64,000 bases of DNA from an uncultured Pseudomonadota bacterium (GCA_964440325.1 CAYTRW010000003.1:2924-66923), one strand, 5' to 3'; shown: positions 2,796 through 47,571, counted from the stretch's first letter. Notes: a model not told the origin generated them from the sequence alone. Program-made: numbers and translations.

Positions 2796-5700
2796 TCATT
2801 GTTCAGGTTCAATAATGTCTTGTACATCCTCAAGCCCATCTTTTAAAACAACGCGGAAAGGAAGTGCAAGACGAATATTTTTTGATTGTAATGATCGAGC
2901 GATATTCATTCGTACGTCACTTGCAATATTCCACATTTCAAGCGTATACACTGAGCTTATAAATCCTCGAACCATAAAGCGATATCCTTGTGTTTCAAAC
3001 TTTTCAAGGCGAACGATAGGTTTTGGATTTCTGAGCACTTGTGGGTGTGATGCAACGGCTTGATATAAAAGATCGCGTACGACATCTGCATTTTCTTTGT
3101 AATCAATAAAGACATCAATGTCATCAAATGCGATAAAATTACGTACATAGTTCCAGTTGATGATTGAGCGTGCAATTATTTGTGAGTTTGGAATAACAAT
3201 GGTGGTACTGTTTTTGCGACGGATAATAACACAGCGTGCAGTAATGCGTTGCACAACACCCTGGGTTTCTTCTTCAAGACGAATATAATCGCCTATTTTT
3301 ATAGGACGTTGAATCAAAATAATAAAGTATGCAATAAAGTCGCCAAGAGGTTCTCTTATATTCCAACCAAGTCCAAGTAATGCAGCACCAATTACCCAAA
3401 CAATAAAATCGCCAAGTCCAACGTTTCTAAATCCAATAGCGATAGTAATGAGTACTAAAAAGTATTGAATAAGTCTTACCGTTGCATGTTGAACACCGGA
3501 GTCAATCAAAAGGAGATCAAAAATTTTATCCAAAACAAATCGATTTATCGCATATGCGGCAATAAATCCTCCAAGGACAAATCCTATAATTTCTAGCAAT
3601 GAAGCAAGAGAAATAGGCGTTGTCGTTTGCTCTAAGATAATTGGTTTATTGAGGAGCGTTACAAAATCTTTAATGGCAATTGGCCAGCCCCAAATTTTTG
3701 CTCCAACCATAATGCCTAAAAAGCTGAGCATCAAAAATGAAGTAATTATCAAAAGTCCAAACCATGTGCGTGCATGAGAAAAGCGTTCGCGAATGATATC
3801 TTCTCCTGAAAAGAAAAAGATATATGAAGATGTTTTTTTGACCTTACCATGAATCCAGATAAGAAATTTAAAGAGAACAACCGTGTAAAAAATATTGGAA
3901 AGCATGTATAAAACAAGTTGCCCAAACCCAATATAAGGATTACTTAAAATAATAATTGTTATTGCAATAAGAAGAATGAGATAAAAGTAGGTTTCTACTT
4001 GAGTTCTAATCCAAAGCCATCCTACATTTTTTGAAGGGATAATGCTTATAATTTGTTCTTTTGAGATAAGAAAGATTAATGAAATCTGGAAGATAATAAA
4101 GTTTATAGCTAATAAAATGGTTGGAAGTTCGGAGTGATAATGGCTTGCAAGAATAAAGGCTTGTCGTAAAAAGAATATAATAATCGTTGCATGCGCTAAC
4201 GTTGCCATCAAAATGATAAATCTATTTTGGAAGTCCGCAGATAAAAGAGCATAGTCCGATTGCACATTAAACTGTAAAAAAGCTTTTGTAAAACGGTATG
4301 TAAGATATGAAAGATACGGGATAGAAAAGAGATAGAAAAATACAAAAGAGTATGTGTCTGGTGCAAATTGATAGAGAAGGAAAAGGAGAAAAATCCAAAA
4401 ATGTATCGCTCCAAAATTGCGCGAAGTAAATTGGCAAAAAAGTGCAATAATAGTTGAAAGGTATCTAATAAAACCAGTATATTTTTTCCCAAATCCCAAG
4501 AAGAATCGTGCTAAAAAAGAAGCATATTGCCGTATTAAGAAGAATATGAATAGCAATAAAAAGAGTTTTGATAAGAAGAAAATAAATGAAAAGCGATTAT
4601 GAATGAGCTCTTTTACACGCTTGACGAGCGTTTTTGATTCAAATCGTGTTGCATGAGAATATGCATCCACAAAAAAGAGAGAAAGATCGGTGACAATTGA
4701 TTGAATACCATGAAGTGTTATTGCGTATTCAGGGCGATACCACATTGTTTTTGATTGAAGTTCACTTACAATAAAATCTATTAATCGAATGGTATTTGTT
4801 GTTTCCGCAATAGATCCAGAATATGCTGCAGTAAGTTGCCCAAGAATATCAATCTTTTTTTGCACATCAAGGTGAGCTTGCTCTGTTAGACTTAAAAGTT
4901 GAGTAAGTAATTCGGCATTTTGTTTAAAGATGCCATTTTTTTGTCGGGAAATAAGTTCTTCCCATGCATGAATATTGTCAAGAACCTTTTTTTGTTGCCC
5001 AAGTTGTTCAGCAACAGCGTTCATCTTTTCTTTAAGTTGTGCGATGGTGCCTAAGCATTCCGTTTTTTGTAATTTATATGAATCAAGTTCTTGAGTAATG
5101 TTTTCTTCAGAAAAAAACTTGTGTTCTATCATGCGATAGTACGATTCTTTTGCCTTGAGTTGTACATTTGCAAAATTAAATTTTTCATCTTCAAGAGCAA
5201 TAAGGGCTTGAAGCCGCTCAATTTCTTTTTTGATAAGTGAAATATGGGCATTTAGGGTTGAGATGCGGGTAACACCAGCATATGATCCTATTGTGTGGCG
5301 CGTATCGCTGGACCAATCATCAATTTCTTTTCCAAGCGAAATTCCTTCCTCCTTGCATAGATGTTCAAGAAGAAGCTCCTGCTCTTTAAGAGACGTTAAA
5401 AGTTTGTTGCGCTCTTCTTGATAAGTTTCTTTTTTGGCTAAATATTCTTTTTTTATCTGAGCAACGCTTTCTTTTTCTGCAATAACATCTATTTCTCCAA
5501 TGCGAATACTGTTTTTTATGAGGCGAAACATCTTTTGCATGGTGTCAAGACGCATTTTTTCAACAAACGTTTTTGTTTGTGAAAAAGTGATACGCTGCTT
5601 CATTTCTGTGGTTCTGAGCTCTTCCCATTCTTTGCGCGCAGCTGAAAGTTGATCAAGATAACGAATCGCTTCTTCTACGCGTTTTTTATCTAATGAATGT

Positions 5701-6353
5701 GTTGACGAAGCAACAAAAAGAGATTCCAGTTCATTTAGAGCTCGAGTATGTTCTTCTTGAGATGCTTGTGTTGCAGCTTTGCGATTGCTTTTTTCTGTTT
5801 GAAGATTTTTTTCTTGTTCAGCTAATTGAGCAATCAGAGCTTCTTGCCCAATAATTTGATTGTATACTTTGTATTCATCTTCAAAGGTATAATAAGAGCG
5901 TTCCTTGGCTGTGTATTCACGTTTAAATGATTCAAATTCTGCATCATCAAGGTATATGCGCAAATAGCGTATAAATTCTTGCAGCAAGATACGCAAATTC
6001 CCTCGCACTTGGAGCATTTCTTTAAGAGTTAAGACAGTTTCTTTTAAGAAAGAAAGAGATTTGCTCAAAATAACATTGTTTTTATTTACAGAAAGTTCTT
6101 CTTCAAGGGCATCTATATGATTATTGGTAGATTCTATGGCAACGCTGATTTTTTTTACAACGTCAGGTTCGTCTTTTTCAAGCTTGGAAAGAGCGTCAAG
6201 AGCGGTACGCAGCAGAGTTCTTTTTTCATCAGTAGCGCTTACAAATAGATTTTCAGGAGCTTGAGGTTTTAGCAGGTTGGTTAGCGTATTGGAAGCAAGA
6301 AGTGGAGAAAAATTTGTTCCAAGGAGCAACAAAAAAAAACACAACAAAAACAC
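2796..6353 (-). CDS. MscK/KefA-family mechanosensitive channel (signal peptide, long periplasmic coiled-coil domain, 11-12 TM, C-terminal MscS domain)
   Basis: N-terminal signal peptide, about 480 aa of coiled-coil-rich sequence, a multi-TM block, then an MscS-type beta domain (IGDYIRLEEETQGVVQRITARCVIIRRKNSTTIVIPNSQI...). The 1185 aa length is typical of MscK/MscM. Confidence 0.8.
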   Translation of the reverse strand: MFLLCFFLLLLGTNFSPLLASNTLTNLLKPQAPENLFVSATDEKRTLLRTALDALSKLEKDEPDVVKKISVAIESTNNHIDALEEELSVNKNNVILSKSLSFLKETVLTLKEMLQVRGNLRILLQEFIRYLRIYLDDAEFESFKREYTAKERSYYTFEDEYKVYNQIIGQEALIAQLAEQEKNLQTEKSNRKAATQASQEEHTRALNELESLFVASSTHSLDKKRVEEAIRYLDQLSAARKEWEELRTTEMKQRITFSQTKTFVEKMRLDTMQKMFRLIKNSIRIGEIDVIAEKESVAQIKKEYLAKKETYQEERNKLLTSLKEQELLLEHLCKEEGISLGKEIDDWSSDTRHTIGSYAGVTRISTLNAHISLIKKEIERLQALIALEDEKFNFANVQLKAKESYYRMIEHKFFSEENITQELDSYKLQKTECLGTIAQLKEKMNAVAEQLGQQKKVLDNIHAWEELISRQKNGIFKQNAELLTQLLSLTEQAHLDVQKKIDILGQLTAAYSGSIAETTNTIRLIDFIVSELQSKTMWYRPEYAITLHGIQSIVTDLSLFFVDAYSHATRFESKTLVKRVKELIHNRFSFIFFLSKLFLLLFIFFLIRQYASFLARFFLGFGKKYTGFIRYLSTIIALFCQFTSRNFGAIHFWIFLLFLLYQFAPDTYSFVFFYLFSIPYLSYLTYRFTKAFLQFNVQSDYALLSADFQNRFIILMATLAHATIIIFFLRQAFILASHYHSELPTILLAINFIIFQISLIFLISKEQIISIIPSKNVGWLWIRTQVETYFYLILLIAITIIILSNPYIGFGQLVLYMLSNIFYTVVLFKFLIWIHGKVKKTSSYIFFFSGEDIIRERFSHARTWFGLLIITSFLMLSFLGIMVGAKIWGWPIAIKDFVTLLNKPIILEQTTTPISLASLLEIIGFVLGGFIAAYAINRFVLDKIFDLLLIDSGVQHATVRLIQYFLVLITIAIGFRNVGLGDFIVWVIGAALLGLGWNIREPLGDFIAYFIILIQRPIKIGDYIRLEEETQGVVQRITARCVIIRRKNSTTIVIPNSQIIARSIINWNYVRNFIAFDDIDVFIDYKENADVVRDLLYQAVASHPQVLRNPKPIVRLEKFETQGYRFMVRGFISSVYTLEMWNIASDVRMNIARSLQSKNIRLALPFRVVLKDGLEDVQDIIEPEQ

Positions 6354-6364
6354 TCTTTTCCTTC

Positions 6365-6994
6365 TCAGATTAAATTATGAATGTGTAAAAATTGTCTTGT
6401 TTTAAATCCATTGATAGTGAAATGTTCTTGCACGCATGCTTTAAGCCACTCATCAATAATGTATTCATCAGCTAAATGTAAAGACTCTTTGCGTATCATG
6501 TCAATAGGATGAGTAGAAAGCTGCATTATTTTTTTATGTATTCCAAATGGGATGAAGCCAGAAATATAAAAAAGAAGACATAAAAATGTTTTTTTTTCTA
6601 ATGCTGAAAGATTTTGTTTCTTGAAAAGATGCAGGCATAAGTCAAAAATAGTTTTATCGTTCATGCCAATTGGTAAAAGATAGGTAATTAATTCAAATAC
6701 ATGGTGGACAAAAAGAATGTCTTGTTGCGCCATATAAAGAGGCAGATCTAATAATGTAATAGAAGAAAGAGATGTTCTATTGTTTATCGTAGTGTATTCA
6801 AAAGAAATAAGAGCACCGGTTGAAATAAGAATATTTTGATTGTATATTGCGTCGACTCGTCCAAGCATGTTCCCAAGTAAAGATATCTTTTGTTTATGAA
6901 GATGTTTTTTTAAGACAATTGCGATGTGCATGCTCGTACATATATTTTTAAATTTGATATAAAAATGACACTTTACTGTAACATAAAGTGTCAT
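6365..6994 (-). CDS. Hypothetical protein; the true start is probably the internal Met (MHIAIVL..., about 6931), because the annotated N-terminus is a translated hairpin
   Basis: Long ORF with no recognisable motifs. Its first about 20 codons coincide with a perfect 14-bp inverted repeat at 6962-6997. There is a weak resemblance to a RecO-like N-terminal region. Confidence 0.35.
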   Translation of the reverse strand: MTLYVTVKCHFYIKFKNICTSMHIAIVLKKHLHKQKISLLGNMLGRVDAIYNQNILISTGALISFEYTTINNRTSLSSITLLDLPLYMAQQDILFVHHVFELITYLLPIGMNDKTIFDLCLHLFKKQNLSALEKKTFLCLLFYISGFIPFGIHKKIMQLSTHPIDMIRKESLHLADEYIIDEWLKACVQEHFTINGFKTRQFLHIHNLI

Positions 6995-6997
6995 TTT
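6962..6997. promoter_or_regulatory. Perfect 14-bp inverted repeat (AAAATGACACTTTA-N8-TAAAGTGTCATTTT): hairpin or palindromic operator
   Basis: Seen directly in sequence: the left arm at 6962-6975 is the reverse complement of the right arm at 6984-6997. It lies immediately 5' of the minus-strand hypothetical gene and 3' of a possible unannotated small ORF (7021-7182, -). Confidence 0.4.
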
Positions 6998-7020
6998 TAT
7001 ACAAAATGATTCTCTTTTTA

Positions 7021-7182
7021 TGGTCGATTATTTACACCTCTTAGGACTGTAAATTTTCGAGCGGGTGTTACAAAGTATTGTTGATTGGTTTGTGTAAATA
7101 CAATTTGTTGATGATTAGTATTTGGTTGTTGAACGCCGAATAATGAAAGAAATGAGACAATAAAAGCTTGTATTGTTTGCAT
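7021..7182 (-). CDS. Possible unannotated small ORF (54 aa, MQTIQAFIVSFLSLFGVQQPNTNHQQ...) with a hydrophobic N-terminus
   Basis: Hand-translated ATG..TAA ORF on the minus strand inside the long 6995-7410 intergenic region. Same orientation as the neighbouring small secreted-protein genes. No obvious SD. Confidence 0.15.
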
Positions 7183-7410
7183 AAAAATAAAGATTAAAAA
7201 TGTTTTATAAATGATAGGTTATGATACGTATTGATTTTTTTTGAATATGCAGCTATATCAACTGATTTTTGCATGATGAGCTGCGTAAACATATATTATG
7301 GAGCAATCAAATTTTTATTTTTTTTACTCCATAATATCCAATTGCCCCCATTCTTTAAAAGAGCAAAAGTTGGTTGCTATATTATAAAAGCATAGCTTAA
7401 ATAATATATT

Positions 7411-7665
7411 TTAGGGTTCTTCTCTTCTTCGCTTTATCCCCTCGTTCCCGTCGTGATCTTCTGAACGTGGGTTTTTTTGAGAAATTTTTTGTCGTGCTTC
7501 AGTTCTACTATTTTTTTCGCCAAACATATCCTGGGAGGACTTTTTTGGGGGAGTAGGGACTGTATATACAAGATTGTTAAATGCATTTCTAGGCGGAGTC
7601 ATAGGTCTATGGGCTGCTTGTAACGTTGAAGCAAGGACAACAATGCATAAAAATAGTTTTTTCAT
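7411..7665 (-). CDS. Small secreted basic/Pro-rich protein (family member A)
   Basis: Signal peptide MKKLFLCIVVLASTLQA followed by HRPMTPPRNAF... Its start overlaps the stop of member B in the ATGA style. Confidence 0.5.
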   Translation of the reverse strand: MKKLFLCIVVLASTLQAAHRPMTPPRNAFNNLVYTVPTPPKKSSQDMFGEKNSRTEARQKISQKNPRSEDHDGNEGIKRRREEP

Positions 7666-8000
7666 GACAATGTTCCAAAAAGTTTGCGAGAGGCAGGTGA
7701 GAGTGAAATTTCATCTTTCTTTTCTTTTTTGTATCCGGCAAGAAAAGCTCTTACTTTTCCTTCTTCTTTTAAACCAGGAAGCCATTGACGATAGGCTGCA
7801 TATTGTTCTTCGGCTTCTTCTAAAAATTTTTCAGCCTTTTTTTCAGCCTTTTTTTGAGGATTAAAACTGTTTACAGGATTTAATCTTTTTCTCTTTGGAG
7901 TGTTTAGTGGCCATTCTAGAGGGTTAGGTTGTCTTTGCCCAGAAAAAGCAGATATCCCAAATAAGGAAGTAAGAATTGCAAGTGTCCATTTGTTGCGCAT
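7662..8000 (-). CDS. Small secreted basic/Pro-rich protein (family member B)
   Basis: Signal peptide MRNKWTLAILTSLFGISAFSG followed by QRQPNPLEWPLNTPKRKR..., then a Lys/Glu-rich tail. Confidence 0.5.
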   Translation of the reverse strand: MRNKWTLAILTSLFGISAFSGQRQPNPLEWPLNTPKRKRLNPVNSFNPQKKAEKKAEKFLEEAEEQYAAYRQWLPGLKEEGKVRAFLAGYKKEKKDEISLSPASRKLFGTLS

Positions 8001-8149
8001 ATGTTTTTTCTTTTTTTTAAAAGATTTTTTGTTTTATAAATACAAAAGGATAATAGATGTCAAAAACAAAATGTAGCAAAAGTAAAACCAAAAGCAACTA
8101 AAATAGAATTGTTAGGCAAAAAAGATTGATTTGTATTCAAAAAATAAAA

Positions 8150-8201
8150 AAAGATTCAGAGGAGAGATGAGAGTATAATTTTTTATACTCTCATCTCTCC
8201 T
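8150..8201 (-). terminator. Intrinsic terminator after small-protein gene C: perfect 17-bp stem, 7-nt loop, then a T-run on the minus strand
   Basis: GGAGAGATGAGAGTATA (8161-8177) is the exact reverse complement of TATACTCTCATCTCTCC (8185-8201). On the minus strand it is followed by TCTGAATC then TTTTTTTATTTTTT. Confidence 0.7.
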
Positions 8202-8204
8202 ATC

Positions 8205-8453
8205 TTAGTTTTGGTTATTATTGCGTTGGATGTTTAAGTCTGTGTTATTTTGATCTTCACGCAATTCCATGTTCGCTATTTGCTCAATTATACCAGCAAG
8301 AGATCTTTTAGCATTTCTGTTGCTGTTGTTAATATTTAAAAACTCTTGCGAAGGAGCTTTTTTTGGCGCAGGAGGACAAGTGGGTCTTTGTGCGCCTGAT
8401 ACAATATGTGTGAATCCAAGAAATGTAATACAGCATAATAGTTTTTTAAGCAT
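8205..8453 (-). CDS. Small secreted basic/Pro-rich protein (family member C)
   Basis: Signal peptide MLKKLLCCITFLGFTHIVSGA followed by QRPTCPPAPKKAP... Confidence 0.5.
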   Translation of the reverse strand: MLKKLLCCITFLGFTHIVSGAQRPTCPPAPKKAPSQEFLNINNSNRNAKRSLAGIIEQIANMELREDQNNTDLNIQRNNNQN

Positions 8454-8481
8454 AAAATTCCATTTACTTTTGTGTGAGTTT

Positions 8482-8847
8482 TTAGCGTCTTTGCCTTTTT
8501 GCGACTTGTATTTCTGCGGGATACTCTCTCTCTCTTATTCTTGAAGTAACCCCTTCATTTATTAGCCCTATTGCAGGTAAAGTTGTAAAAGAGGGTGCAT
8601 ATGTTCCAGTAATAGGTGGAACTACGGGGGCTATTGTAGGTGGAATTGTAAAGTTGAGTACGTGTGGAATTAATACGGCATAAATTTGATTTGGAAAAGC
8701 ATAGAGGTCCTCATCTCTTTTTGTTTTTCTCTGTGGAGCCTGATTGGATGGATAGGTTCGGGCTCTAGGAGGAGTGGTGTATCCTGCTGCATGTACTATG
8801 TTTGTAAATAGTATGACGCCTGTAAAAAACAATATTTTTTTAGTCAT
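8482..8847 (-). CDS. Small secreted Pro-rich protein (family member D)
   Basis: Signal peptide MTKKILFFTGVILFTNIVHAA followed by GYTTPPRARTYPSNQAPQRKTKR... and a Pro-rich middle (TIPPTIAPVVPPITGTYAPS). Confidence 0.5.
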   Translation of the reverse strand: MTKKILFFTGVILFTNIVHAAGYTTPPRARTYPSNQAPQRKTKRDEDLYAFPNQIYAVLIPHVLNFTIPPTIAPVVPPITGTYAPSFTTLPAIGLINEGVTSRIREREYPAEIQVAKRQRR

Positions 8848-8934
8848 GTTGTAACTCCATGTAGTAATAGAACAAGTAGGAATAAAAAATAAGCGGACAA
8901 AATTCTTTATCTGCTTATGGGGTTTTTAGAAAAA

Positions 8935-11028
8935 TTATAGTCCCATGCTTTTAAAAAAAGCATCACTTTCTGGGGTTCTTCCCAAAAAATTAATAAGAAG
9001 GTCAGTTGGGTCACACGTTCCACCTTTTGCCAGTATGCATGTAGCGTATTTTGAGCCAATTTCTGGATTTAAAAGTCCATAGATTTTTATTTGATCAAAA
9101 ATATCCAGCGCAAATACTTTTGACCACATATAACCATAATATTTTGCATCATATCCACAGAGATGTCCAAAGTTGGCGTACATGTGATTTTCTTCATCAA
9201 ACCGTGAAGTGCTGATAAATGTTTCATATGCCTCTTTAAACAATCGGTAAATATCAACAGAGTCATCTTTTTGGTGTAAATTAAGAGAAACAAATGATAA
9301 CCATACTTGTCGCTGCAAAAAACTTCCAGATCCATCGTTTTTGAGTGCGATTATGGTATCAATAGTTTGATCATCAAGAGTTTCTCCGGTCTTGTAATGG
9401 CAACTAAGCATTTTTAAAATATCTTTATTATCAATCCATTCTTCAAGCATTTGAGATGGAAGTTCTACAAAATCTCTTTTTACATTGGTACCTGAAAGAC
9501 AAGCGATTGTTGTTGCTCCAAACAATGCATGCAGCGCGTGGCCAAATTCATGAAAGAATGTACTTACATCTGAGCGCTTTAAAAGAGCAGGGGAATCACT
9601 TGTTGCTCTGGGGAAGTTTGCCATAACAACAACGGCTCCAGGATGCAATGTGTTTTCTTCTGTTAAAAAAGCAGGAATAAAACTTGCTTTTGCAGCATGA
9701 GAAAATTTGCCTTCACGAGGGAAAAGATCAAGAAAAATAGACCCATATAATATTTTTTCATCATTGTCATAAAGTTGAATACAGAGTACATCCTGATGCC
9801 AAGATTTAGTGAGGGGACAACTTTTGAGCTTTATATTAAAAAAAGACTCATAAATTGAAAAAAGGCCTTTTATAGTATGATCTAGAGGAAAGTATTCTGC
9901 TATTTTTTGTTCATCAAGATTAAAATGATTTTTTTTGTATTGAGTTTGTAAAAAAATACCATTCCATGGATCAATCTTCCCATCATCGTAGAAGGATACC
10001 GATTCAGGAAGGTTTTGTGTCCAGGTTGCAAGTTCTTGTTTTGCTTTTATTTGTGCTTTTTCAAGTAATTCATTTAAAAAACTTTTTACTGTTTCAGGAT
10101 CTTTTGCCATTTGATCTGCTAGGTCAAAGTGTGCGTATGTTTTAAACCCAAGAAGTTGGGCAAGCTTATTTCGCTTGATAAGGATCTCTTGCAGCAGGAC
10201 TTCATTCATTGGATATGCACGATTATTAAATGCACGAGAAAGGCGCTTGCGCGTATCTTCTACGATACAATTTTCCATAATGGTATAAAATGTTGGGTAA
10301 TCAACGCCAACAATATATTTTCCTGATGAATCTTTTGGGAGCCTTTGCACAAATGCATCGTCAACTCCTGCAAGATCTTCTTTGGTTGCTTGAATAGAGC
10401 TGCAGTCTTCTGCAATATTCCGTTCAAATTGTACAGAAAGAGATGCGATTTCTTTTTTAAGATTGGAGACTTGTTCAAGAAGTTCATCAGGAAGATTGAG
10501 CCCTTGCCGTTCGTAATCAGCTATTGTTTCAGCAATAAAATACTGCTGTTCAGGTGAAAGAGAGGTATTATTTTTATTATTAACAGCAAAAATTTTGAGT
10601 GATTTATAAAGGGCTTTATTGCTTCCAAGTTTATCAACATAAAATGACTGTAAGAGGATTATTGCTTCATGAGCTGCATCACGAACTTCTTTTCGAGGGC
10701 TTACTGATTCAAGAATAGAGCACAGATTAGAAAAGAGTGCAAGATTTGATTTTGCGCATAAATTATCAAAGGCCTTAAAGCTATTTTGATATGTTTGTTT
10801 ATCTGCAGAAATAGTAAGAATATGTGCAATTTCTTGTTCTGCTTGGGCCATAAACATATGGGCTTTGTTTTTTATTTCTTCTGGTTCAAGTAAAAAACAT
10901 TGAGTGAGTGTATTAATATTGTATGAACTATTTAGCATATCGATGTCCCGAGAGCAAAATCCAAGGCGTACTACACAGAGGGTAAGTATGCAAAGGGTTG
11001 TCAAAATTCCTATTTTTATCGCATTCAT
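8935..11028 (-). CDS. M3-family zinc metallo-oligopeptidase (oligopeptidase A/thimet/Dcp-like) with an N-terminal signal peptide
   Basis: HEXXH zinc motif in FFHEFGHALHALFG and overall M3 architecture at 697 aa. Hydrophobic N-terminus MNAIKIGILTTLCILTLCVV. The start overlaps the uvrB stop (ATGA coupling), which supports the long N-terminus. Confidence 0.85.
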   Translation of the reverse strand: MNAIKIGILTTLCILTLCVVRLGFCSRDIDMLNSSYNINTLTQCFLLEPEEIKNKAHMFMAQAEQEIAHILTISADKQTYQNSFKAFDNLCAKSNLALFSNLCSILESVSPRKEVRDAAHEAIILLQSFYVDKLGSNKALYKSLKIFAVNNKNNTSLSPEQQYFIAETIADYERQGLNLPDELLEQVSNLKKEIASLSVQFERNIAEDCSSIQATKEDLAGVDDAFVQRLPKDSSGKYIVGVDYPTFYTIMENCIVEDTRKRLSRAFNNRAYPMNEVLLQEILIKRNKLAQLLGFKTYAHFDLADQMAKDPETVKSFLNELLEKAQIKAKQELATWTQNLPESVSFYDDGKIDPWNGIFLQTQYKKNHFNLDEQKIAEYFPLDHTIKGLFSIYESFFNIKLKSCPLTKSWHQDVLCIQLYDNDEKILYGSIFLDLFPREGKFSHAAKASFIPAFLTEENTLHPGAVVVMANFPRATSDSPALLKRSDVSTFFHEFGHALHALFGATTIACLSGTNVKRDFVELPSQMLEEWIDNKDILKMLSCHYKTGETLDDQTIDTIIALKNDGSGSFLQRQVWLSFVSLNLHQKDDSVDIYRLFKEAYETFISTSRFDEENHMYANFGHLCGYDAKYYGYMWSKVFALDIFDQIKIYGLLNPEIGSKYATCILAKGGTCDPTDLLINFLGRTPESDAFFKSMGL

Positions 11029-13022
11029 TTTTTTTTCTCATTTTTTTGGGGCAATTCAATTTGTTGATTTAATGCAATCCATTCTTCTCGTAATGTGATC
11101 GCTGTTTCAAAATCTAGCTTTTCAGCAGCGCGTTGCATTTGTGCTTCAAGAGCAATAAGTCTTGCATGAATCGCTTCTGGGCTTGTAGCGTCTTTTTGTT
11201 TTTCTTCTTTTTTACGTTGTTTGCTGGCTTGTGCAATTGCATGTTGGATGCCAGAGATTGATTTAGTGACTTCACGCATGACTGTTGAAGGAGTAATGTT
11301 ATGTTTTTTGTTATAATCTTGTTGTAGTTGTCTTCTGCGCGCAGTTTCATGCATGGCAGATTCCATAGACTTTGTAATGGTATCTGCATATAAAATAACG
11401 TGAGAATCTGCATTGCGTGCAGCTCGCCCAATAATCTGGATTAATGAACGTTTGTCTCGCAAAAAACTTTCGATATCTGCATCCATAATTGCAACAAGTG
11501 CAACTTCTGGTAAATCAATTCCTTCGCGTAGCAGGTTTACACCTACTAGACAATCAAATTCTCCTGCGCGCAACTTTAAAAGCAACTCTGTTCGTTGTGG
11601 TGTTTTTAGTTCGCTGTGCAAATAACATACTTTTATGCCACGATCTTCAAGGTATTGTGCAAGCTCTTCAGCAAGTCGCTTGGTCATAACCATAACCAAA
11701 GACCGGTAACCTTTTTTGGTAGTTTCTTGAATCTGTTTTTGCAGATGTGTTAATTGGTTTTCACGCGGATGGATGGTTATTGGTGGATCTATCAGTCCTG
11801 TTGGGCGAATAATTTGCTCAACAGCTTTTTGTGAATGTGAAAGTTCATATTCACTTGGTGTTGCAGAGACAAAAATTGTGTCTTTAAAATATTTTTCTAT
11901 TTCTTCAAATTTAAGAGGACGATTGTCGTAGCTTGATGGCAATCTAAAGCCAAATTCGATTAGTGCTTTTTTGCGTGCACGATCGCCTGCATACATACCA
12001 CGAAGTTGAGGAATTGTAATATGAGATTCATCAATAATTAACAAAAAATCATCGGGGAAAAAATCAAATAAGCAAAAGGGAGGCTCTCCCGTTTTTCTGC
12101 CATCAAAATAGGATGAATAGTTTTCGATACCTGAGCAAAAACCGGTTTCTTTGATCATTTCTATATCGTGAGACACGCGTTGTTTTACTCGTTCTTGATA
12201 TACTTGATTTTCAAGTTGTGGCCACCAATCATCAAGATCGCGCTTGATCATAGAAAGAGCTGTTTCTTTTTTTTCTTCTGTTGTAACAAAGTGCTTGGCC
12301 GGTAAAACGATAGCATTATCAAGGCTCAAAAGAACAGTGTTTTGTTGTCTATTAACCCATTGCATTCGTTCAATACTAGATCCAAAAAGTTCAATGCGAA
12401 GTTTTTCTTTTTGGTATGGCAATATAATCTCAATAGAATTTCCTATTACTTGAAAAGTTCCTGGATCACGAGAGACGTCATTGCGTTTGTATTGAATAAA
12501 AATGAGTGCGTGAATAAGTTCATTTCGATTTATTTTTTGTCCAACATGAAGTTGCAAAGAAAGCTCTTTATAATCAGTTGGATTTCCCAATGAATAAATA
12601 CATGATACTGATGAAACAACAATTGTATCAGAACGATTAATTAAAGAAGCAGTAGCTTCTATGCGGAGTCTTTCAATTTCGCTATTAATGAGAGTTTCTT
12701 TGGGAATATACATATCTTGTGCAGGAAGATATGATTCAGGCTGATAATAATCATAATAACTTACAAAATAACAGACTTTGTTTTGAGGGAAAAAAAGAGA
12801 AAACTCCTCATATAATTGAGCAGCAAGCGTTTTGTTAGGAGCAAGGATTAGTGTAGGCTTTTGTGTGTGTGCAATAACATTGGCAAGAGTAAATGTCTTA
12901 CCAGATCCTGTTACTCCCACAAGCGTGGAAATACTTGGTCGTTGTGTGATAAGCTCTGCAATAGCGGCAGGTTGTCCCCCAGCAGGTTTAAACGGAGAAT
13001 GAAGTATGAATTTTTTTTCCAT
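11025..13022 (-). CDS. uvrB: Excinuclease ABC subunit B
   Basis: Walker A GVTGSGKTFT, full-length UvrB architecture, and the C-terminal UvrB/UvrC interaction motif (LDFETAITLREE). Confidence 0.95.
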   Translation of the reverse strand: MEKKFILHSPFKPAGGQPAAIAELITQRPSISTLVGVTGSGKTFTLANVIAHTQKPTLILAPNKTLAAQLYEEFSLFFPQNKVCYFVSYYDYYQPESYLPAQDMYIPKETLINSEIERLRIEATASLINRSDTIVVSSVSCIYSLGNPTDYKELSLQLHVGQKINRNELIHALIFIQYKRNDVSRDPGTFQVIGNSIEIILPYQKEKLRIELFGSSIERMQWVNRQQNTVLLSLDNAIVLPAKHFVTTEEKKETALSMIKRDLDDWWPQLENQVYQERVKQRVSHDIEMIKETGFCSGIENYSSYFDGRKTGEPPFCLFDFFPDDFLLIIDESHITIPQLRGMYAGDRARKKALIEFGFRLPSSYDNRPLKFEEIEKYFKDTIFVSATPSEYELSHSQKAVEQIIRPTGLIDPPITIHPRENQLTHLQKQIQETTKKGYRSLVMVMTKRLAEELAQYLEDRGIKVCYLHSELKTPQRTELLLKLRAGEFDCLVGVNLLREGIDLPEVALVAIMDADIESFLRDKRSLIQIIGRAARNADSHVILYADTITKSMESAMHETARRRQLQQDYNKKHNITPSTVMREVTKSISGIQHAIAQASKQRKKEEKQKDATSPEAIHARLIALEAQMQRAAEKLDFETAITLREEWIALNQQIELPQKNEKKK

Positions 13023-13083
13023 CTTCTTATTTTTTAAACAAAATATGCGTGTTTTTTTTACAAGAGTATCATGGTTTCTTTGT

Positions 13084-14004
13084 ATGAAAAAACAAATTAT
13101 TGTAATTCTGGCGCTTTTATTTAATATTCCTAGTTTTGGGCTGCAGATTTTTTGGAATGCTCTAAAGAAAAGTATGTTTCCTCAAAAAAGCGAGGAGCAA
13201 CTTTTTAATGAGGCGCTTAATCAAACATATCGATCAAAATATACGCAGTTTGCGCGTTTTTTAGAAAAGCATCCGTTGTGGGTTTTTAAAATTGATTCAT
13301 ATATGCAGTCTGTGTATATGAATGATGTTGTTGAGAAAAAAGATCATGCCAATATTGTACGATTTATTAATGCAGGAATTTCTCCAGATATTCTAGATTA
13401 TTATGGATGCCCATTGCTTGCGCGTGCTATTTTAAGCCATGCAACAGAAACAGTTAAAGTGTTATTGCAGTGTGGATCAGACCCTGAAAAATGTGATAAA
13501 AATCATTTGTCTCCATTGTATTATGCGTGTGTTTTAAAAAAAAAAGAAATGATTAAGTTGTTGGTAAGTGCAGGCGCATCTTTAGATAGGTATATGTTTG
13601 GTAAATTATTATCTGCTGGTACGCATAATGATATTGTTTCGTATGTATGGCAGTTGGTAGATGAAAACCCTGTGTTAGCAGCATCAGAAGGATCTTTGTA
13701 TACCAATAATTTTTCAAGACCTATAGATTTTGCGGTATGTTATTCTCGTTCAGTTACCGGTAAAATAACGCCATTACATGCTCTTTTAAAAAATAAACAT
13801 TTTGATGCAGCATTGACTATCTTTAAGAGCCTTATTGATGAAATTGAAAAGGATCCAAGCAATAAAAGAGCTGCAATTGCAGCTCTTGTTATTTTAAAGC
13901 ATCCTATGCATGATGATAGAACAAAAGCAATTTTAGGGAGAACGTTAATATTTGATTCTAATGGTCGGGTACGAGATTCTTTTATGGAAAAGCTTATGCA
14001 ATAA
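13084..14004 (+). CDS. Secreted ankyrin-repeat protein
   Basis: Signal peptide MKKQIIVILALLFNIPSFG. Ankyrin-type repeats follow (GCPLLARAILSHATETVKVLLQCGSDPEKCDKNHLSPLYYACVLKKKEMIKLLVSAGASLD). Start placed at the internal ATG 13084, since the longer ORF would overlap the divergent uvrB. Confidence 0.7.
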   Translation: MKKQIIVILALLFNIPSFGLQIFWNALKKSMFPQKSEEQLFNEALNQTYRSKYTQFARFLEKHPLWVFKIDSYMQSVYMNDVVEKKDHANIVRFINAGISPDILDYYGCPLLARAILSHATETVKVLLQCGSDPEKCDKNHLSPLYYACVLKKKEMIKLLVSAGASLDRYMFGKLLSAGTHNDIVSYVWQLVDENPVLAASEGSLYTNNFSRPIDFAVCYSRSVTGKITPLHALLKNKHFDAALTIFKSLIDEIEKDPSNKRAAIAALVILKHPMHDDRTKAILGRTLIFDSNGRVRDSFMEKLMQ

Positions 14005-18514: not shown

Positions 18515-18844
18515 TTAATTTGTTATTTCAAAAATATCTTTAGCTGCAAAGCCATAAAAAATAGTTGCAGGCAAAAGTGCTAAGGCGCGATTTGCAGTTG
18601 AAGAATCAGGGTTGTTTTGAGCATACTTTAATCTGGCAATCATACAGGCTGTAGTTAACCCAACTTTAACTGCAAAAAGCTTACCATTAAAGGGATTCCT
18701 TTGATTTAGGGGACTTTGATTCAGATCAACAGGATTGTTGTAGGTTGGAGTTCCTTGCAAAGAGTAAGATAGTCCTAAAAAAATAGGTAGGGTAACAAGG
18801 TTTAATAGCCTCTTCTTCTGAATATTTAGCATAACAACCTCCAA
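18515..18844 (-). CDS. Hypothetical small membrane/secreted protein
   Basis: ORF with hydrophobic segments; no homology recognised. Confidence 0.3.
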   Translation of the reverse strand: MEVVMLNIQKKRLLNLVTLPIFLGLSYSLQGTPTYNNPVDLNQSPLNQRNPFNGKLFAVKVGLTTACMIARLKYAQNNPDSSTANRALALLPATIFYGFAAKDIFEITN

Positions 18845-18995
18845 TATGCTTTTATGATTATATCTATTTTTAATTATATAGCCATAATTCTATCTGTAAA
18901 GCGCTAATTGGAAGAGGCATCTTGAGTATCAAAAAGGGCTAAAAGGCTTACTGTAAAGGGAATGGCTTTATTGCGTGATTGGTATTATTTCACGT

Positions 18996-19400
18996 CTAAT
19001 CTGTATGTAGCGGGTTGTTCTTGATGCTATTTATAATATAATCTTTATTGCGTATAACAAGATTCAAGCATGAAATGGCGACAAACATTTTTGCCATTTG
19101 AGAGCTATTCATGCCATTGGGCTCTTTATTTGCAAAAGATTGGCTTACATGCATAGCGACTCCCAGGCTTCCTGTTATTAATCCATTTTCAAGCATAAAA
19201 TCTATGCAAGAAAAAGGAGGGGTATCATTTTTGCGTGGTTCTTGATCAACCTTATGAAGATATCGAGAAACTTCATGTATTACAAGTTGGTCATTAAATC
19301 TAACTTTTTTAGTAGGAGAGGGAGGAGTAGAGGTTAAGCATGAGAATGTTGGAATATGAGTACAAAATAAAAGTCCAAAAAAAAGTATCAACATATACAA
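18996..19400 (-). CDS. Hypothetical secreted protein
   Basis: N-terminal hydrophobic signal-like segment; no homology recognised. Confidence 0.3.
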   Translation of the reverse strand: MYMLILFFGLLFCTHIPTFSCLTSTPPSPTKKVRFNDQLVIHEVSRYLHKVDQEPRKNDTPPFSCIDFMLENGLITGSLGVAMHVSQSFANKEPNGMNSSQMAKMFVAISCLNLVIRNKDYIINSIKNNPLHTD

Positions 19401-39486: not shown

Positions 39487-39810
39487 TTAGCCATCATAAA
39501 GATCAGATATTTGTGATTTTAGATTCTCGTTTATTGCGGTAAGCGCATCAACCTCTTTTTGCAAAAGTGTTTTTTCTTTTTTAATCGTATCCATTTCTTT
39601 TTGGAGCCGTTTTATAATGGAGTTTGATTCATTTAGGATTTGTGTTTTATGGGTAATATTTTCTGAAAGCATGGTTATTTCATCTTTTAGTATTTTCATT
39701 TCTTCAGTTTGAGCTTCATGTTCTAATTTTTTAAAATAGCTTTTTGTTGATTGAGCGCATGACAAGGTAATGCTGTAGCAATAAATATATAAAAATAGGT
39801 ATTTTTTCAT
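39487..39810 (-). CDS. Small secreted coiled-coil protein
   Basis: Signal-like N-terminus, then heptad-rich sequence (EMKILKDEITMLSENITHKTQILNESNSIIKRLQKEMDTIKKEKTLLQKEVDALTAINENLKSQISDL). Confidence 0.35.
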   Translation of the reverse strand: MKKYLFLYIYCYSITLSCAQSTKSYFKKLEHEAQTEEMKILKDEITMLSENITHKTQILNESNSIIKRLQKEMDTIKKEKTLLQKEVDALTAINENLKSQISDLYDG

Positions 39811-39819
39811 GCATGTTCC

Positions 39820-40104
39820 TTAGGTGGGGAGCTCTAGCGGTTTTTTAAAACATAAAGGACATGGTTTTTGAAGTTCAAGACATTGATCAAGAAGAGCCTT
39901 TTTATCTGAAGAGGAAAGATTTTCTTTTTTTAATCTAACCAGAAGAGCTTGATTTTTTATGCAAAGAAGACAGGGTTTTTTAATAATGGGGCAAAGCGTA
40001 TCTTTTTGAGTCTGAAAAGTTGGGACAGGGGTGTCTTTATGTGCCCCTTTTATAATATGACTTACGGTTATTATTATATAAAAAAAAGAATGTATTCTTC
40101 TCAT
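39820..40104 (-). CDS. Small secreted Cys-rich protein with a duplicated KPCxLC motif
   Basis: Probable start MRRIHSFFYIIITVSHIIKGA (signal peptide). Two CP..KKPCLLC / KPCPLCFKKP motifs. Confidence 0.3.
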   Translation of the reverse strand: MRRIHSFFYIIITVSHIIKGAHKDTPVPTFQTQKDTLCPIIKKPCLLCIKNQALLVRLKKENLSSSDKKALLDQCLELQKPCPLCFKKPLELPT

Positions 40105-40258
40105 ATAAAACCTTTTTCTAAAACATGGCAAATATTCTCATATGGCAACACTAGTATAAAAATTATTTTTATATCAACTATTTGAATAAAACCGTTGAGT
40201 TCTTTTAAAAAGAATCAGTAGGATAAAAAAGATAGGAATAGATAAAAAAAGGATTGTT

Positions 40259-46447: not shown

Positions 46448-46490
46448 GAAAAGAAGCTCTATAGTTTTTGTTAAGCTTCTTTTCTTTTAC
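46448..46490 (+). terminator. Hairpin (11-bp stem GAAAAGAAGCT/AGCTTCTTTTC) with trailing Ts after trxA
   Basis: Seen directly. The right arm overlaps the stop codon of the convergent minus-strand gene. Confidence 0.45.
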
Positions 46491-47103
46491 TATACGGCGT
46501 ATACAACATCATAAGCGTCCAGGTATTAATACTCTTAAAGGGATCCTCGCAAAGATGCGAACACTCCAAATTACAAGAACGATCGCACTGATCAGTAATA
46601 AGTAAAGTCGAAGAATGAGGACAATCTATAACTTTTACTTTCCCTTTGAGAGTACAATCAATCATATGGTTAGTTCTTTTGGTTATAGTCGGTATATCAT
46701 AAGAAAACCAATTGCCAGGATTTTCAGGTTTAAATGAAGATGGTTCTGAGTTAAAATCTTCTTGGCGAAGCGCATTAAGCTTTTTTTTAATGGGTACACT
46801 CAGAAACGCTTGATTTAGATAAAACACAGCTGACAAGATGCTAGCAGAAATTAAAAGTTTGCTGCTTTTTTGTAATGCAGAATTTTTAAAAAAAGATGCT
46901 GCAGAAAAAGTTGACGCTCCCAAAAGCATGGTAGCTAAAGAGGCATTTTTAAAACGGTTTGCTGATTTACGTGCTTTGGTGTAGATAATGCATTCTTTGA
47001 CAGCGGTACAGAAATTGCTAGGCGCATCAAATGCTACTGTTGTTTGAGAGCATGCAGCCAAAAGGGCAAGAATGGTTATTTTTATCTTCATGCAAACTTT
47101 CAT
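46471..47103 (-). CDS. Hypothetical secreted Cys-rich protein (210 aa)
   Basis: Signal peptide MKVCMKIKITILALLAACSQTTVA; multiple Cys in the C-terminal third. Confidence 0.35.
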   Translation of the reverse strand: MKVCMKIKITILALLAACSQTTVAFDAPSNFCTAVKECIIYTKARKSANRFKNASLATMLLGASTFSAASFFKNSALQKSSKLLISASILSAVFYLNQAFLSVPIKKKLNALRQEDFNSEPSSFKPENPGNWFSYDIPTITKRTNHMIDCTLKGKVKVIDCPHSSTLLITDQCDRSCNLECSHLCEDPFKSINTWTLMMLYTPYSKRKEA

Positions 47104-47220: not shown

Positions 47221-47571
47221 TTAAGATACGGGGGTTTGAGTGAGGATTTTTTTGTGTAATAAATGCAAGAAACAGGGATTTTGGCAGGTTGTATGATAGG
47301 TTGCCATAGCACAAACCGTCTCAGTTGCTCTTTGTTTGTATTCTTGCGAGGAGCGGTTACTTTTTAGTTGAGTAAAAAAAGAGGCCAGAGAGATTGTAAG
47401 CAATGCACTTTGGCAAGGTATTTTTGAGCCATCAATATTATGGGTTAATACATAAGCATCTCTTTGTGGGCCAAAAGGAACCTCAGAGAGGTTTGTCGAT
47501 TGCATGCTTTTTATTGTGCACGCAACTATGCAGAGTAAAAAATATGTTTTAAAAAAAATATGTTTTTTCAC
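47221..47571 (-). CDS. Hypothetical secreted protein (116 aa)
   Basis: Signal peptide; immediately downstream of cysS. Confidence 0.3.
   Translation of the reverse strand: MKKHIFFKTYFLLCIVACTIKSMQSTNLSEVPFGPQRDAYVLTHNIDGSKIPCQSALLTISLASFFTQLKSNRSSQEYKQRATETVCAMATYHTTCQNPCFLHLLHKKILTQTPVS

Follow-up and report, generated by a model that had tools for sequence, protein, structure and literature searches.

The stretch of DNA analysed here, called the window throughout, comprises 64,000 nucleotides of a genome deposited as that of an uncultured Pseudomonadota bacterium (GCA_964440325.1, CAYTRW010000003.1:2924-66923). Between the genes for an M3 zinc oligopeptidase (M3) and for a protein of about 190 amino acids (aa) that we call Y190, its minus strand carries a run of five small open reading frames (ORFs), designated D, C, B, A and E in the direction of transcription (Table 1). 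We think it fairly probable that these five are small orphan genes that evolve fast and make up a tandem cluster specific to their lineage, and that the cluster occupies a variable slot in a genome of the Candidatus Dependentiae. With similar, moderate confidence we regard the products as Sec-exported, basic and mostly disordered proteins restricted to this lineage, which possibly interact with a host.

The original prediction had described A to D as a paralogous family of small secreted Pro/Arg/Lys-rich proteins that might form, with M3, an exported module of propeptides and their processing protease, or else a set of effectors or antimicrobial-like peptides. The ORF list contains the four predicted minus-strand genes and the fifth small ORF, E. 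The family and the module fare less well, as detailed below.

Table 1. Genes and structural elements around the small-gene cluster, in order of position in the window. In peptide sequences, a slash marks the predicted cleavage site or the end of the signal-like segment.
Feature	Position	Strand	Description
MscS-family channel	2796-6353	minus	Giant protein, 1185 aa; PF00924 and PF21082; conserved downstream block
Y190	6365-6931	minus	Conserved, about 190 aa; downstream border of the slot; always directly upstream of the giant MscS-like gene across Dependentiae
Hairpin	6952-7007		24-nt arms, 92% complementary; between E and Y190; -24.1 kcal/mol, z -6.1
E	7018-7182	minus	54 aa; hydrophobic N-terminus, then VQQP...PARK; ortholog of the 66/67-aa gene of relatives
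Inverted repeat	7293-7337		Imperfect, 19 nt; structured spacer after A; fold of 7270-7410 has z -4.1
A	7411-7665	minus	84 aa; ORFan with predicted signal, LQA/AHRPMTPPR...KRRREEP; ATGA overlap of its start with the B stop
B	7662-8000	minus	112 aa; ORFan with predicted signal, AFS/GQRQPNPLEWPLNTPKRKR...
Hairpin	8160-8201		Perfect 19-bp palindrome, 4-nt loop; between C and B; -32.4 kcal/mol, z -6.8
C	8205-8453	minus	82 aa; ORFan with predicted signal, VSG/AQRPTCPPAPKK...; probable paralog of A
D	8482-8847	minus	121 aa; ORFan with predicted signal, VHA/AGYTTPPRARTYP...; positional ortholog of the 75-aa gene of relatives
Terminator-like hairpin and U-run	8878-8918	minus	Directly after the M3 stop
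M3 zinc oligopeptidase	8935-11028	minus	697 aa; PF01432 match; N-terminal hydrophobic segment ..VVRLGFC/SRD
uvrB	11025-13022	minus	665 aa; UvrB Pfam domains on the L002 and L004 orthologs
Ankyrin-repeat protein	13006-14004	plus	Adjoins uvrB

Organization of the cluster

The genes fall into the two tight pairs that had been proposed, with 28 nt between D and C and an ATGA overlap between B and A, and a spacer of 204 nt lies between C and B. This spacer holds the perfect hairpin noted originally, whose stem is 19 bp rather than 17 bp. A U-run on the minus strand begins 7 nt after the stem, and the hairpin is kept in the near strain L001. It is likely to be the terminator of the D-C unit. We also considered a repeated element or a miniature inverted-repeat transposable element, which is ruled out by its single copy in the window. 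The palindrome below E, first placed at 6962-6997, is present but larger than described, with 24-nt arms at 6952-7007. Between M3 and D, the segment 8848-8934 folds with -14 kcal/mol (z -2.8) into a stem, AUAAGC.GAUAAA/UUUGUC.GCUUAU, which is followed by UUUUUUAUU. An Rfam scan of the whole window gave no hit. Judged from these structures, the likely transcription units are uvrB-M3, D-C, B-A and E, and the cluster would probably be transcribed as the last three of these, separately from M3.

Source genome and phylum context

We assign the window to Candidatus Dependentiae (TM6/Babeliales) because the named M3 homologs and all the best genome loci are Dependentiae, Babeliales or TM6. These bacteria are intracellular parasites of protists. 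The window DNA is AT-rich (35% GC), and its low GC content, the ankyrin-repeat gene adjoining uvrB and the abundance of signal-bearing ORFs all fit the phylum. When genome contigs were searched with a profile built from the M3 alignment, the nearest species representative was only 47% identical in M3, and all relatives found were at or below this value. The same genome-contig scan with M3 as a single-protein query gave no match, and a metagenome scan with M3 returned no relative closer than the genome-contig scan had given.

In Chromulinavorax destructans, a cultured member of the Dependentiae described by Deeg et al., signal peptides are reported on 44% of the coding sequences, orphan ORFs (ORFans) are over-represented among these, and the secreted proteinases listed include M3 (PMC6561590). 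Of the 47 window ORFs with 150 aa or more, 23 appear to carry a signal under a rule-based test (defined below). Given the reports for the phylum and this share of signal-bearing ORFs, neither a signal on M3 nor a series of small, uncharacterized proteins with signals stands out here, and the original view of the M3 signal as exceptional does not stand.

Further small ORFs with signal-like N-termini (103-134 aa) occur in the window at 18515-19400, 39487-40131, 47221-47571 and 62723-63085, two of these sites being adjacent pairs. One of the ORFs, at 18996-19400, has a Pro-rich stretch directly after the signal (TSTPPSPTKK). Searches of the ORF database described below found no significant similarity between these additional ORFs and A to D.

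A variable slot between M3 and Y190

To place the cluster in a comparative setting, syntenic loci were taken from the contigs of M3 homologs, on which UvrB, M3, Y190 and MscS were located by tblastn. The order uvrB, M3, gap, Y190, MscS is conserved in 16 loci of related genomes, and the gap between M3 and Y190 ranges widely: 14 bp in L008, 34 bp in L032, about 200 bp (up to 206) in L011, L042 and L048, about 0.7 kb in L002, L004 and L014, about 1.4 kb in L017 and L029, 1.9 kb in this window, and 3.2-5 kb in L010, L024, L020, L025 and L058. Five of the 16 loci (gaps of 14-206 bp) leave no room for a gene. Elsewhere the contents of the slot are different in each lineage, lie on either strand and mostly have signal-like N-termini; examples are an alanine racemase, Gly/Arg-rich proteins, and others with lengths of 150 aa or 500-600 aa. 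Since slot contents vary in this way among syntenic loci, M3 is conserved with or without the small genes, and the small genes are an accessory fill of the slot. The closest relatives, L002 and L004, hold just two small slot genes, one of 75 aa (X) and one of 66/67 aa. Three more genes would have been added in the lineage of the window, at least partly by local duplication.

Tandem paralogs independent of those in the window lie in the slots of two other loci, namely a pair of 143/154 aa in L010 (8438-10054; z 16.6) and a pair of 599/519 aa with identical N-termini in L024 (8113-11596). A third slot protein of L010 carries TTTPPRRTRVYP, which is close to TTPPRARTYP of D. The slot proteins of L014 (8142-8507, minus strand) and L025 (8089-8742, minus strand) are signal-bearing and consist largely of Arg/Gly repeats (RGGGGGGMRGGGM... 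and GRGGRAGGGHGRGAQG..., respectively) that recall eukaryotic RGG motifs.

The small genes and the M3 peptidase

M3 itself is a typical member of its family. It matches PF01432 over profile positions 2-457 of 457 (E=3.4e-110), and its zinc site, HEFGH at residues 493-497 with Glu522 located 25 residues after the second His, is invariant in 12 homologs. Against the NCBIfam OpdA model it scores E=8e-89, with 299 bits against an equivalog cutoff of 927 bits. Thousands of homologs of about 700 aa each exist, and the enzyme is present in hundreds of Dependentiae genomes. The uvrB stop overlaps the M3 start (ATGA), as first noted, and uvrB lies upstream of M3 in at least 20 Dependentiae loci examined by tblastn. 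Because of this overlap the M3 start is fixed, and the N-terminal hydrophobic segment is both real and conserved across Babeliales homologs. In these proteins (window 10950-11028; homologs P0014-P0099) the segment ends in a Cys after an aromatic residue (LGFC/S, LSYC/S, FGFC/S, MKFC/S). This resembles a lipobox but is not a canonical one, the conserved Cys being preceded at -1 by Phe or Tyr (LGFC, LSYC, FGFC). A canonical lipobox, LAAC/S, is found in another window protein, at 46471-47103.

M3 oligopeptidases such as thimet oligopeptidase, neurolysin and OpdA take short peptides of about 20 residues or fewer. It is conceivable that M3 is exported to the same compartment as the small proteins and there trims or activates them, in line with the original proposal, or that they serve as its dedicated substrates or inhibitors. 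M3 and the small genes are indeed adjacent on the same strand, both partners have export-type N-termini, and the Pro-rich segments at the N-termini of the small proteins recall bradykinin-like peptides, which are among the typical substrates of M3 enzymes. Furthermore, Escherichia coli OpdA/PrlC has been linked to signal peptides, a link that concerns cleaved leader peptides in general and not the products of neighbouring genes (PMC8076867). Against a dedicated module stands the lack of co-conservation, since five of the 16 loci encode nothing between M3 and Y190 and the others encode unrelated genes. A terminator-like hairpin with a U-run follows M3, and M3 evolves slowly, with a ratio of nonsynonymous to synonymous substitution rates (dN/dS) of 0.11-0.14, while the small genes turn over. 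Finally, mature products of 62-101 aa exceed the substrate limit of about 20 residues, so that these proteins would not be direct substrates of an enzyme that takes short peptides only. We therefore consider a functional partnership very improbable, and the synteny has already largely refuted it. M3 is better regarded as a conserved, presumably exported housekeeping enzyme of the phylum whose adjacency to the small-gene cluster would be coincidental.

Relatedness and orphan status of the small genes

The proposed family of four was examined by searches of a database of 770 six-frame ORFs and by Smith-Waterman shuffles on the mature parts of protein pairs, with X2 and X4 denoting the 75-aa gene X of L002 and L004. 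A hidden Markov model (HMM) of X2 and X4 finds D in the ORF database with E=0.0014, or 0.0029 when only the mature parts are used, and A and C are reciprocal best matches (E 0.003-0.03); B has no match in this database. In the shuffling tests, D resembles X2 (z 6.95, p <0.001) and X4 (z 4.9, p 0.001), A resembles C (z 3.0, p 0.011), and D resembles B to a comparable degree (z 2.9, p 0.013), while the remaining pairs among A to D and X2/X4 are non-significant. Over their full length A and C reach z 8.7, and their DNA is 62% identical over 93 nt. Weak DNA similarity is also seen at the gene starts of D and X, A and X4, and A and C.

Profile comparison of the mature parts with hhalign did not join these subgroups (AC against DX, P=0.37; B against DX, P=0.28; B against AC, P=0.27), and the claim that A to D are one family was dropped. 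From these alignments we accept a probable paralogy of A and C and the orthology of D and X. There are thus two related pairs, A-C and D-X, with B as an orphan and a family of four unproven. The resemblance of D to B, together with the relation of A to C, would fit a duplication of the D-C pair into B-A. The motif T[TCP]PP?R was sought in all ORFs of 40 aa or more from the window and six loci, and only A, D, X2, X4 and a single L010 slot protein contain it. When E is aligned with the 66/67-aa orthologs of L002 and L004, QQP and ARK are invariant.

Outside this narrow group the proteins are without detectable relatives. Word-indexed searches of 5.8e9 proteins/clusters returned for C and for D only its own 93% strain variant, and an exhaustive HMMER search with B against 1.84e9 representatives returned only B itself. 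A to E gave nothing significant against Pfam, NCBIfam, PHROGs or PDB sequences. A weak match to RXLR (E 0.06) falls far below the cutoff and was discarded, and a phage origin of the small genes was ruled out because there was no PHROG hit.

Predicted export and composition of the products

The N-termini of A to D have a basic n-region (KK, K or R.K), a hydrophobic core without charge and small residues at -3/-1, with predicted cleavage at LQA/A in A, AFS/G in B, VSG/A in C and VHA/A in D. All four satisfy the rule used here for a signal peptide, which asks for a basic n-region followed by 9 or more hydrophobic residues without charge, for small residues at -3/-1 and for a polar mature start, and the originally proposed signal-like N-termini are retained on this test, although the rule is unspecific and also accepts 31 of 163 (19%) spurious shadow ORFs. 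E has no basic n-region. Lipoproteins were ruled out, as A to E contain no lipobox ([LVI][ASTVI][GAS]C) and no Cys at the cleavage region, and type IV pilin-like leaders were ruled out because the G/F..E motif is absent.

As had been proposed, Pro, Arg and Lys are abundant near the mature start, where they account for 7-10 of the first 22 residues. The mature products are 62-101 aa long for A to D (38-101 aa if E is counted), basic (isoelectric point 9.2-10.1) and almost Cys-free, with 8-14% Pro and 7-12% Arg. Dense basic clusters are found in B (PKRKR) and near the C-termini of A (KRRR) and D (KRQRR), and are absent from C and E. The density of K[KR]x[KR] is 1.24 per 100 aa against 0.11 in large window proteins, an enrichment of about 11-fold that was noted post hoc and rests on 4 motifs. 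An AlphaFold (AF2) model of B has a mean predicted local distance difference test score (pLDDT) of 65, with a disordered mature N-terminus and a helical hairpin (helices 48-76 and 79-97).

In most slot proteins the mature part opens with Q-x-P or QQP no more than 3 residues from where cleavage is predicted (AQRP, GQRQP, TQAP, NQVP, VQQP, SQQP); such sites occur in E (window 7021-7140), in its orthologs (L002 10481-10681, L004 10501-10704) and in C, B, X2 and X4. This start may have been inherited from a common ancestor, or it may serve in processing, for example by yielding an N-terminal pyroglutamate.

The short Pro/Arg/Lys-rich segment right after the signal could also suggest proline-rich antimicrobial peptides (PrAMPs) or signalling peptides of the Phr type, and A has a weak match to PhrK (E=0.7). 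This match covers only residues 1-13, within the signal peptide, scores 10 bits against a cutoff of 35 and was discarded. Composition does not support antimicrobial-like peptides either: the mature proteins have 62-101 aa and only 8-14% Pro, whereas a PrAMP is expected to have fewer than about 40 aa, at least about 25% Pro and high Arg throughout. No Rap/TPR receptor, Opp system, ATP-binding cassette exporter or modification enzyme lies nearby, and quorum-sensing systems are reported to be absent from Dependentiae (PMC6561590). A precursor cluster for ribosomally synthesized and post-translationally modified peptides finds no counterpart either, because the genes within about 5 kb are only those for uvrB, M3, Y190, the MscS channel, the ankyrin protein and a glycosyltransferase. 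We regard antimicrobial or signalling peptides as hardly credible at this locus.

Coding signal and evolutionary rate

The small ORFs are intact in the near-identical strains L001 and L007; in A, for example, L001 differs at 2 of 84 amino acids (about 98% identity). Across the near strains the coding parts are 96.5-98.8% identical, compared with 94% for the spacer. Orthologs of D and E persist in relatives whose M3 proteins are 85% and 78% identical to that of the window. By codon usage the annotated frame is favoured in A, B, C and E, D gives a marginal signal, and opposite-strand shadow ORFs are negative. These observations support the view that the small ORFs are genes.

Between the window and the near strains, dN/dS is 0.48 for D, 0.76 for C, 0.83 for B and 0.5 for A (3-12 substitutions each), against 0.12 for M3. 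Between L002 and L004 the values are 0.48 for the 75-aa X and 0.77 for the E ortholog, against 0.135 for M3, 0.16 for Y190 and 0.05 for UvrB. Overall, the neighbours UvrB, M3 and Y190 evolve at dN/dS 0.05-0.17, compared with about 0.5-0.8 for the small genes. The latter are thus either weakly constrained or fast-evolving, a pattern that is typical of host-interaction proteins but also of young genes of marginal function. Between D and its counterpart in L007 (1997-2362), dS is 0.046 (4 changes), far below the 0.186 of the adjoining M3, with the caveat of small numbers; this low value could stem from recombination, or from a sweep that passed recently through the small-gene cluster.

Given such rates, it seems appropriate to ask whether the ORFs, in part or altogether, lack a function or are proto-genes, that is, neutral junk in a recombination-prone, AT-rich spacer. 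Hydrophobic N-termini that look like signals arise easily in ORFs of AT-rich intergenic DNA. A lack of function would be consistent with the share of spurious ORFs that pass the signal-peptide rule (19%), with the dN/dS of 0.76-0.83 for C and B and 0.77 for the E orthologs, with the failure to find homologs beyond near strains, and with the marginal codon signal of D. However, the orthologs of D and E have been kept open at a dS of about 0.65-1.6, and the X ortholog pair shows a dN/dS of 0.48. The ORFs are intact in the near strains and better preserved than the spacer, and codon usage favours the frame of A, B, C and E where shadow ORFs are negative. To this can be added the canonical n-h-c signals, the tight spacing or overlap of the genes, and hairpins situated exactly between the units. 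We judge the non-functional explanation unlikely.

Interpretation and possible roles

A lineage-specific cluster of small, exported orphan proteins is, in our judgement, the better explanation. Each product would leave the cytoplasm by Sec export, and signal peptidase I would cleave it after LQA, AFS, VSG or VHA, which would free basic, Cys-poor and largely disordered polypeptides with a short Pro/Arg/Lys-rich N-terminus. Their most likely site of action would be the envelope or the host, reached after leaving the periplasm, for example in outer-membrane vesicles. A role as secreted effectors is possible.

Several points weigh against this interpretation. In DNA as rich in AT as this, the signal-peptide rule also accepts about a fifth (19%) of the spurious ORFs. 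The dN/dS values of 0.5-0.8 rest on few substitutions and are compatible with near-neutral evolution. The enrichment of basic clusters was spotted only after the fact. The duplication history is weakly supported, as D and B give p=0.013 in the shuffling test but P=0.28 with hhalign, and AC against DX is non-significant. Moreover, Dependentiae have a periplasm and an outer membrane, so that a Sec signal alone would not bring a protein to the host and a further release step would be needed, for example by vesicles; outer-membrane vesicles have been described for the phylum (PMC6561590).

A more specific proposal would be that the products are mini-effectors targeted to the nucleus of a protist host, with the basic clusters as nuclear localisation signals (NLSs), by analogy with SAP11 of phytoplasmas. 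SAP11 combines a signal peptide, an N-terminal NLS and a coiled coil in a protein with a 90-aa mature form (PMC4235307), and B runs parallel to it, with a signal peptide, a basic cluster near the mature N-terminus and a helical hairpin in a mature part of 92 aa, although this analogy was noted post hoc. The roughly 11-fold enrichment of K[KR]x[KR], the fast evolution and lineage specificity typical of effectors, and the intracellular life of Dependentiae all point in the same direction. Against this, there is no sequence homology to SAPs, the motif enrichment is post hoc and involves 4 motifs, and C and E have no basic clusters. Dependentiae are also diderm, and the products would still need a route across the outer membrane. 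Host-nucleus targeting is therefore quite unlikely in our estimation. Bolder still is the suggestion that the slot is a phylum-wide 'nursery' that creates and duplicates secreted host-interaction proteins and has here yielded nucleus-bound, SAP11-like mini-effectors in A, B and D. To this we assign a low probability.

Genes bordering the cluster

Y190 probably starts at the Met at 6931 and not at 6994 (the ORF is listed as 6365-6994), in line with homologs that begin MxxHIALVLKK. It has no hit in Pfam, PHROG, PDB or NCBIfam; two of 14 Y190 homologs match Pfam RecO_C weakly (E 0.0014). Its predicted layout, in which strands at the N-terminus precede helices, could be that of a divergent RecO, but the AF2 model is of poor quality (pLDDT 44).

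On the other side of M3, the uvrB-ankyrin arrangement is kept in L002, L004 and L010. If translated from an internal Met, the ankyrin-repeat protein (13006-14004) has the signal-like segment MKKQIIVILALLFNIPS/F. Most ankyrin proteins of C. destructans are reported to have signal peptides (PMC6561590).

Significance and comparison with known systems

As parasites of protists, Dependentiae are widespread, but hardly any have been cultured. A syntenically anchored slot that is refilled in each lineage offers a convenient place to study the rise and turnover of signal-bearing orphan repertoires, and A, B and D make up a short list of small candidates for localisation tests. To our knowledge, a tandem arrangement of this kind in a defined variable slot adjoining M3 has not been described previously. 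For now, the locus illustrates a trait known from earlier reports on the phylum, and the special-looking link to M3 fails.

M3 resembles E. coli OpdA/PrlC, Dcp and the thimet oligopeptidase family (M3A) in its end-to-end Peptidase_M3 match and intact HEXXH...E zinc site. It differs from cytoplasmic OpdA, which is without the N-terminal hydrophobic extension of about 30 aa and the conserved Cys of the window protein. The small proteins share with the Phr propeptides of Bacillus a small size, a Sec signal and a basic mature N-terminus, but here no Rap-type receptor or Opp adjoins them, and the sole match is sub-threshold and lies on the signal peptide.

The phytoplasma SAPs offer an analogy in several respects. 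In these proteins a cleavable Sec signal precedes a mature part of about 60-100 aa; they are fast-evolving and lineage-specific (PMC4235307), and they come from an intracellular bacterium with a reduced genome; B would also share the order of a basic cluster followed by helices. The SAPs nevertheless have no sequence similarity to the proteins described here, which also lie outside any PMU mobile-unit context. In addition, phytoplasmas are without an outer membrane, and Sec export reaches the host directly, in contrast to Dependentiae with their periplasm.

The nearest counterparts are the signal-bearing ORFans of the Dependentiae themselves, as reported for C. destructans (PMC6561590). They come from the same phylum, are small, are without database homologs and carry Sec-type signals, in a genome that likewise encodes a signal-bearing M3. 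What sets A to E apart is that relatives of their sequences can be detected only within a narrow lineage. We conclude that the cluster represents new orphan sequences of an already described kind, and that the anchored, lineage-variable slot in which they reside is the one mildly new point.

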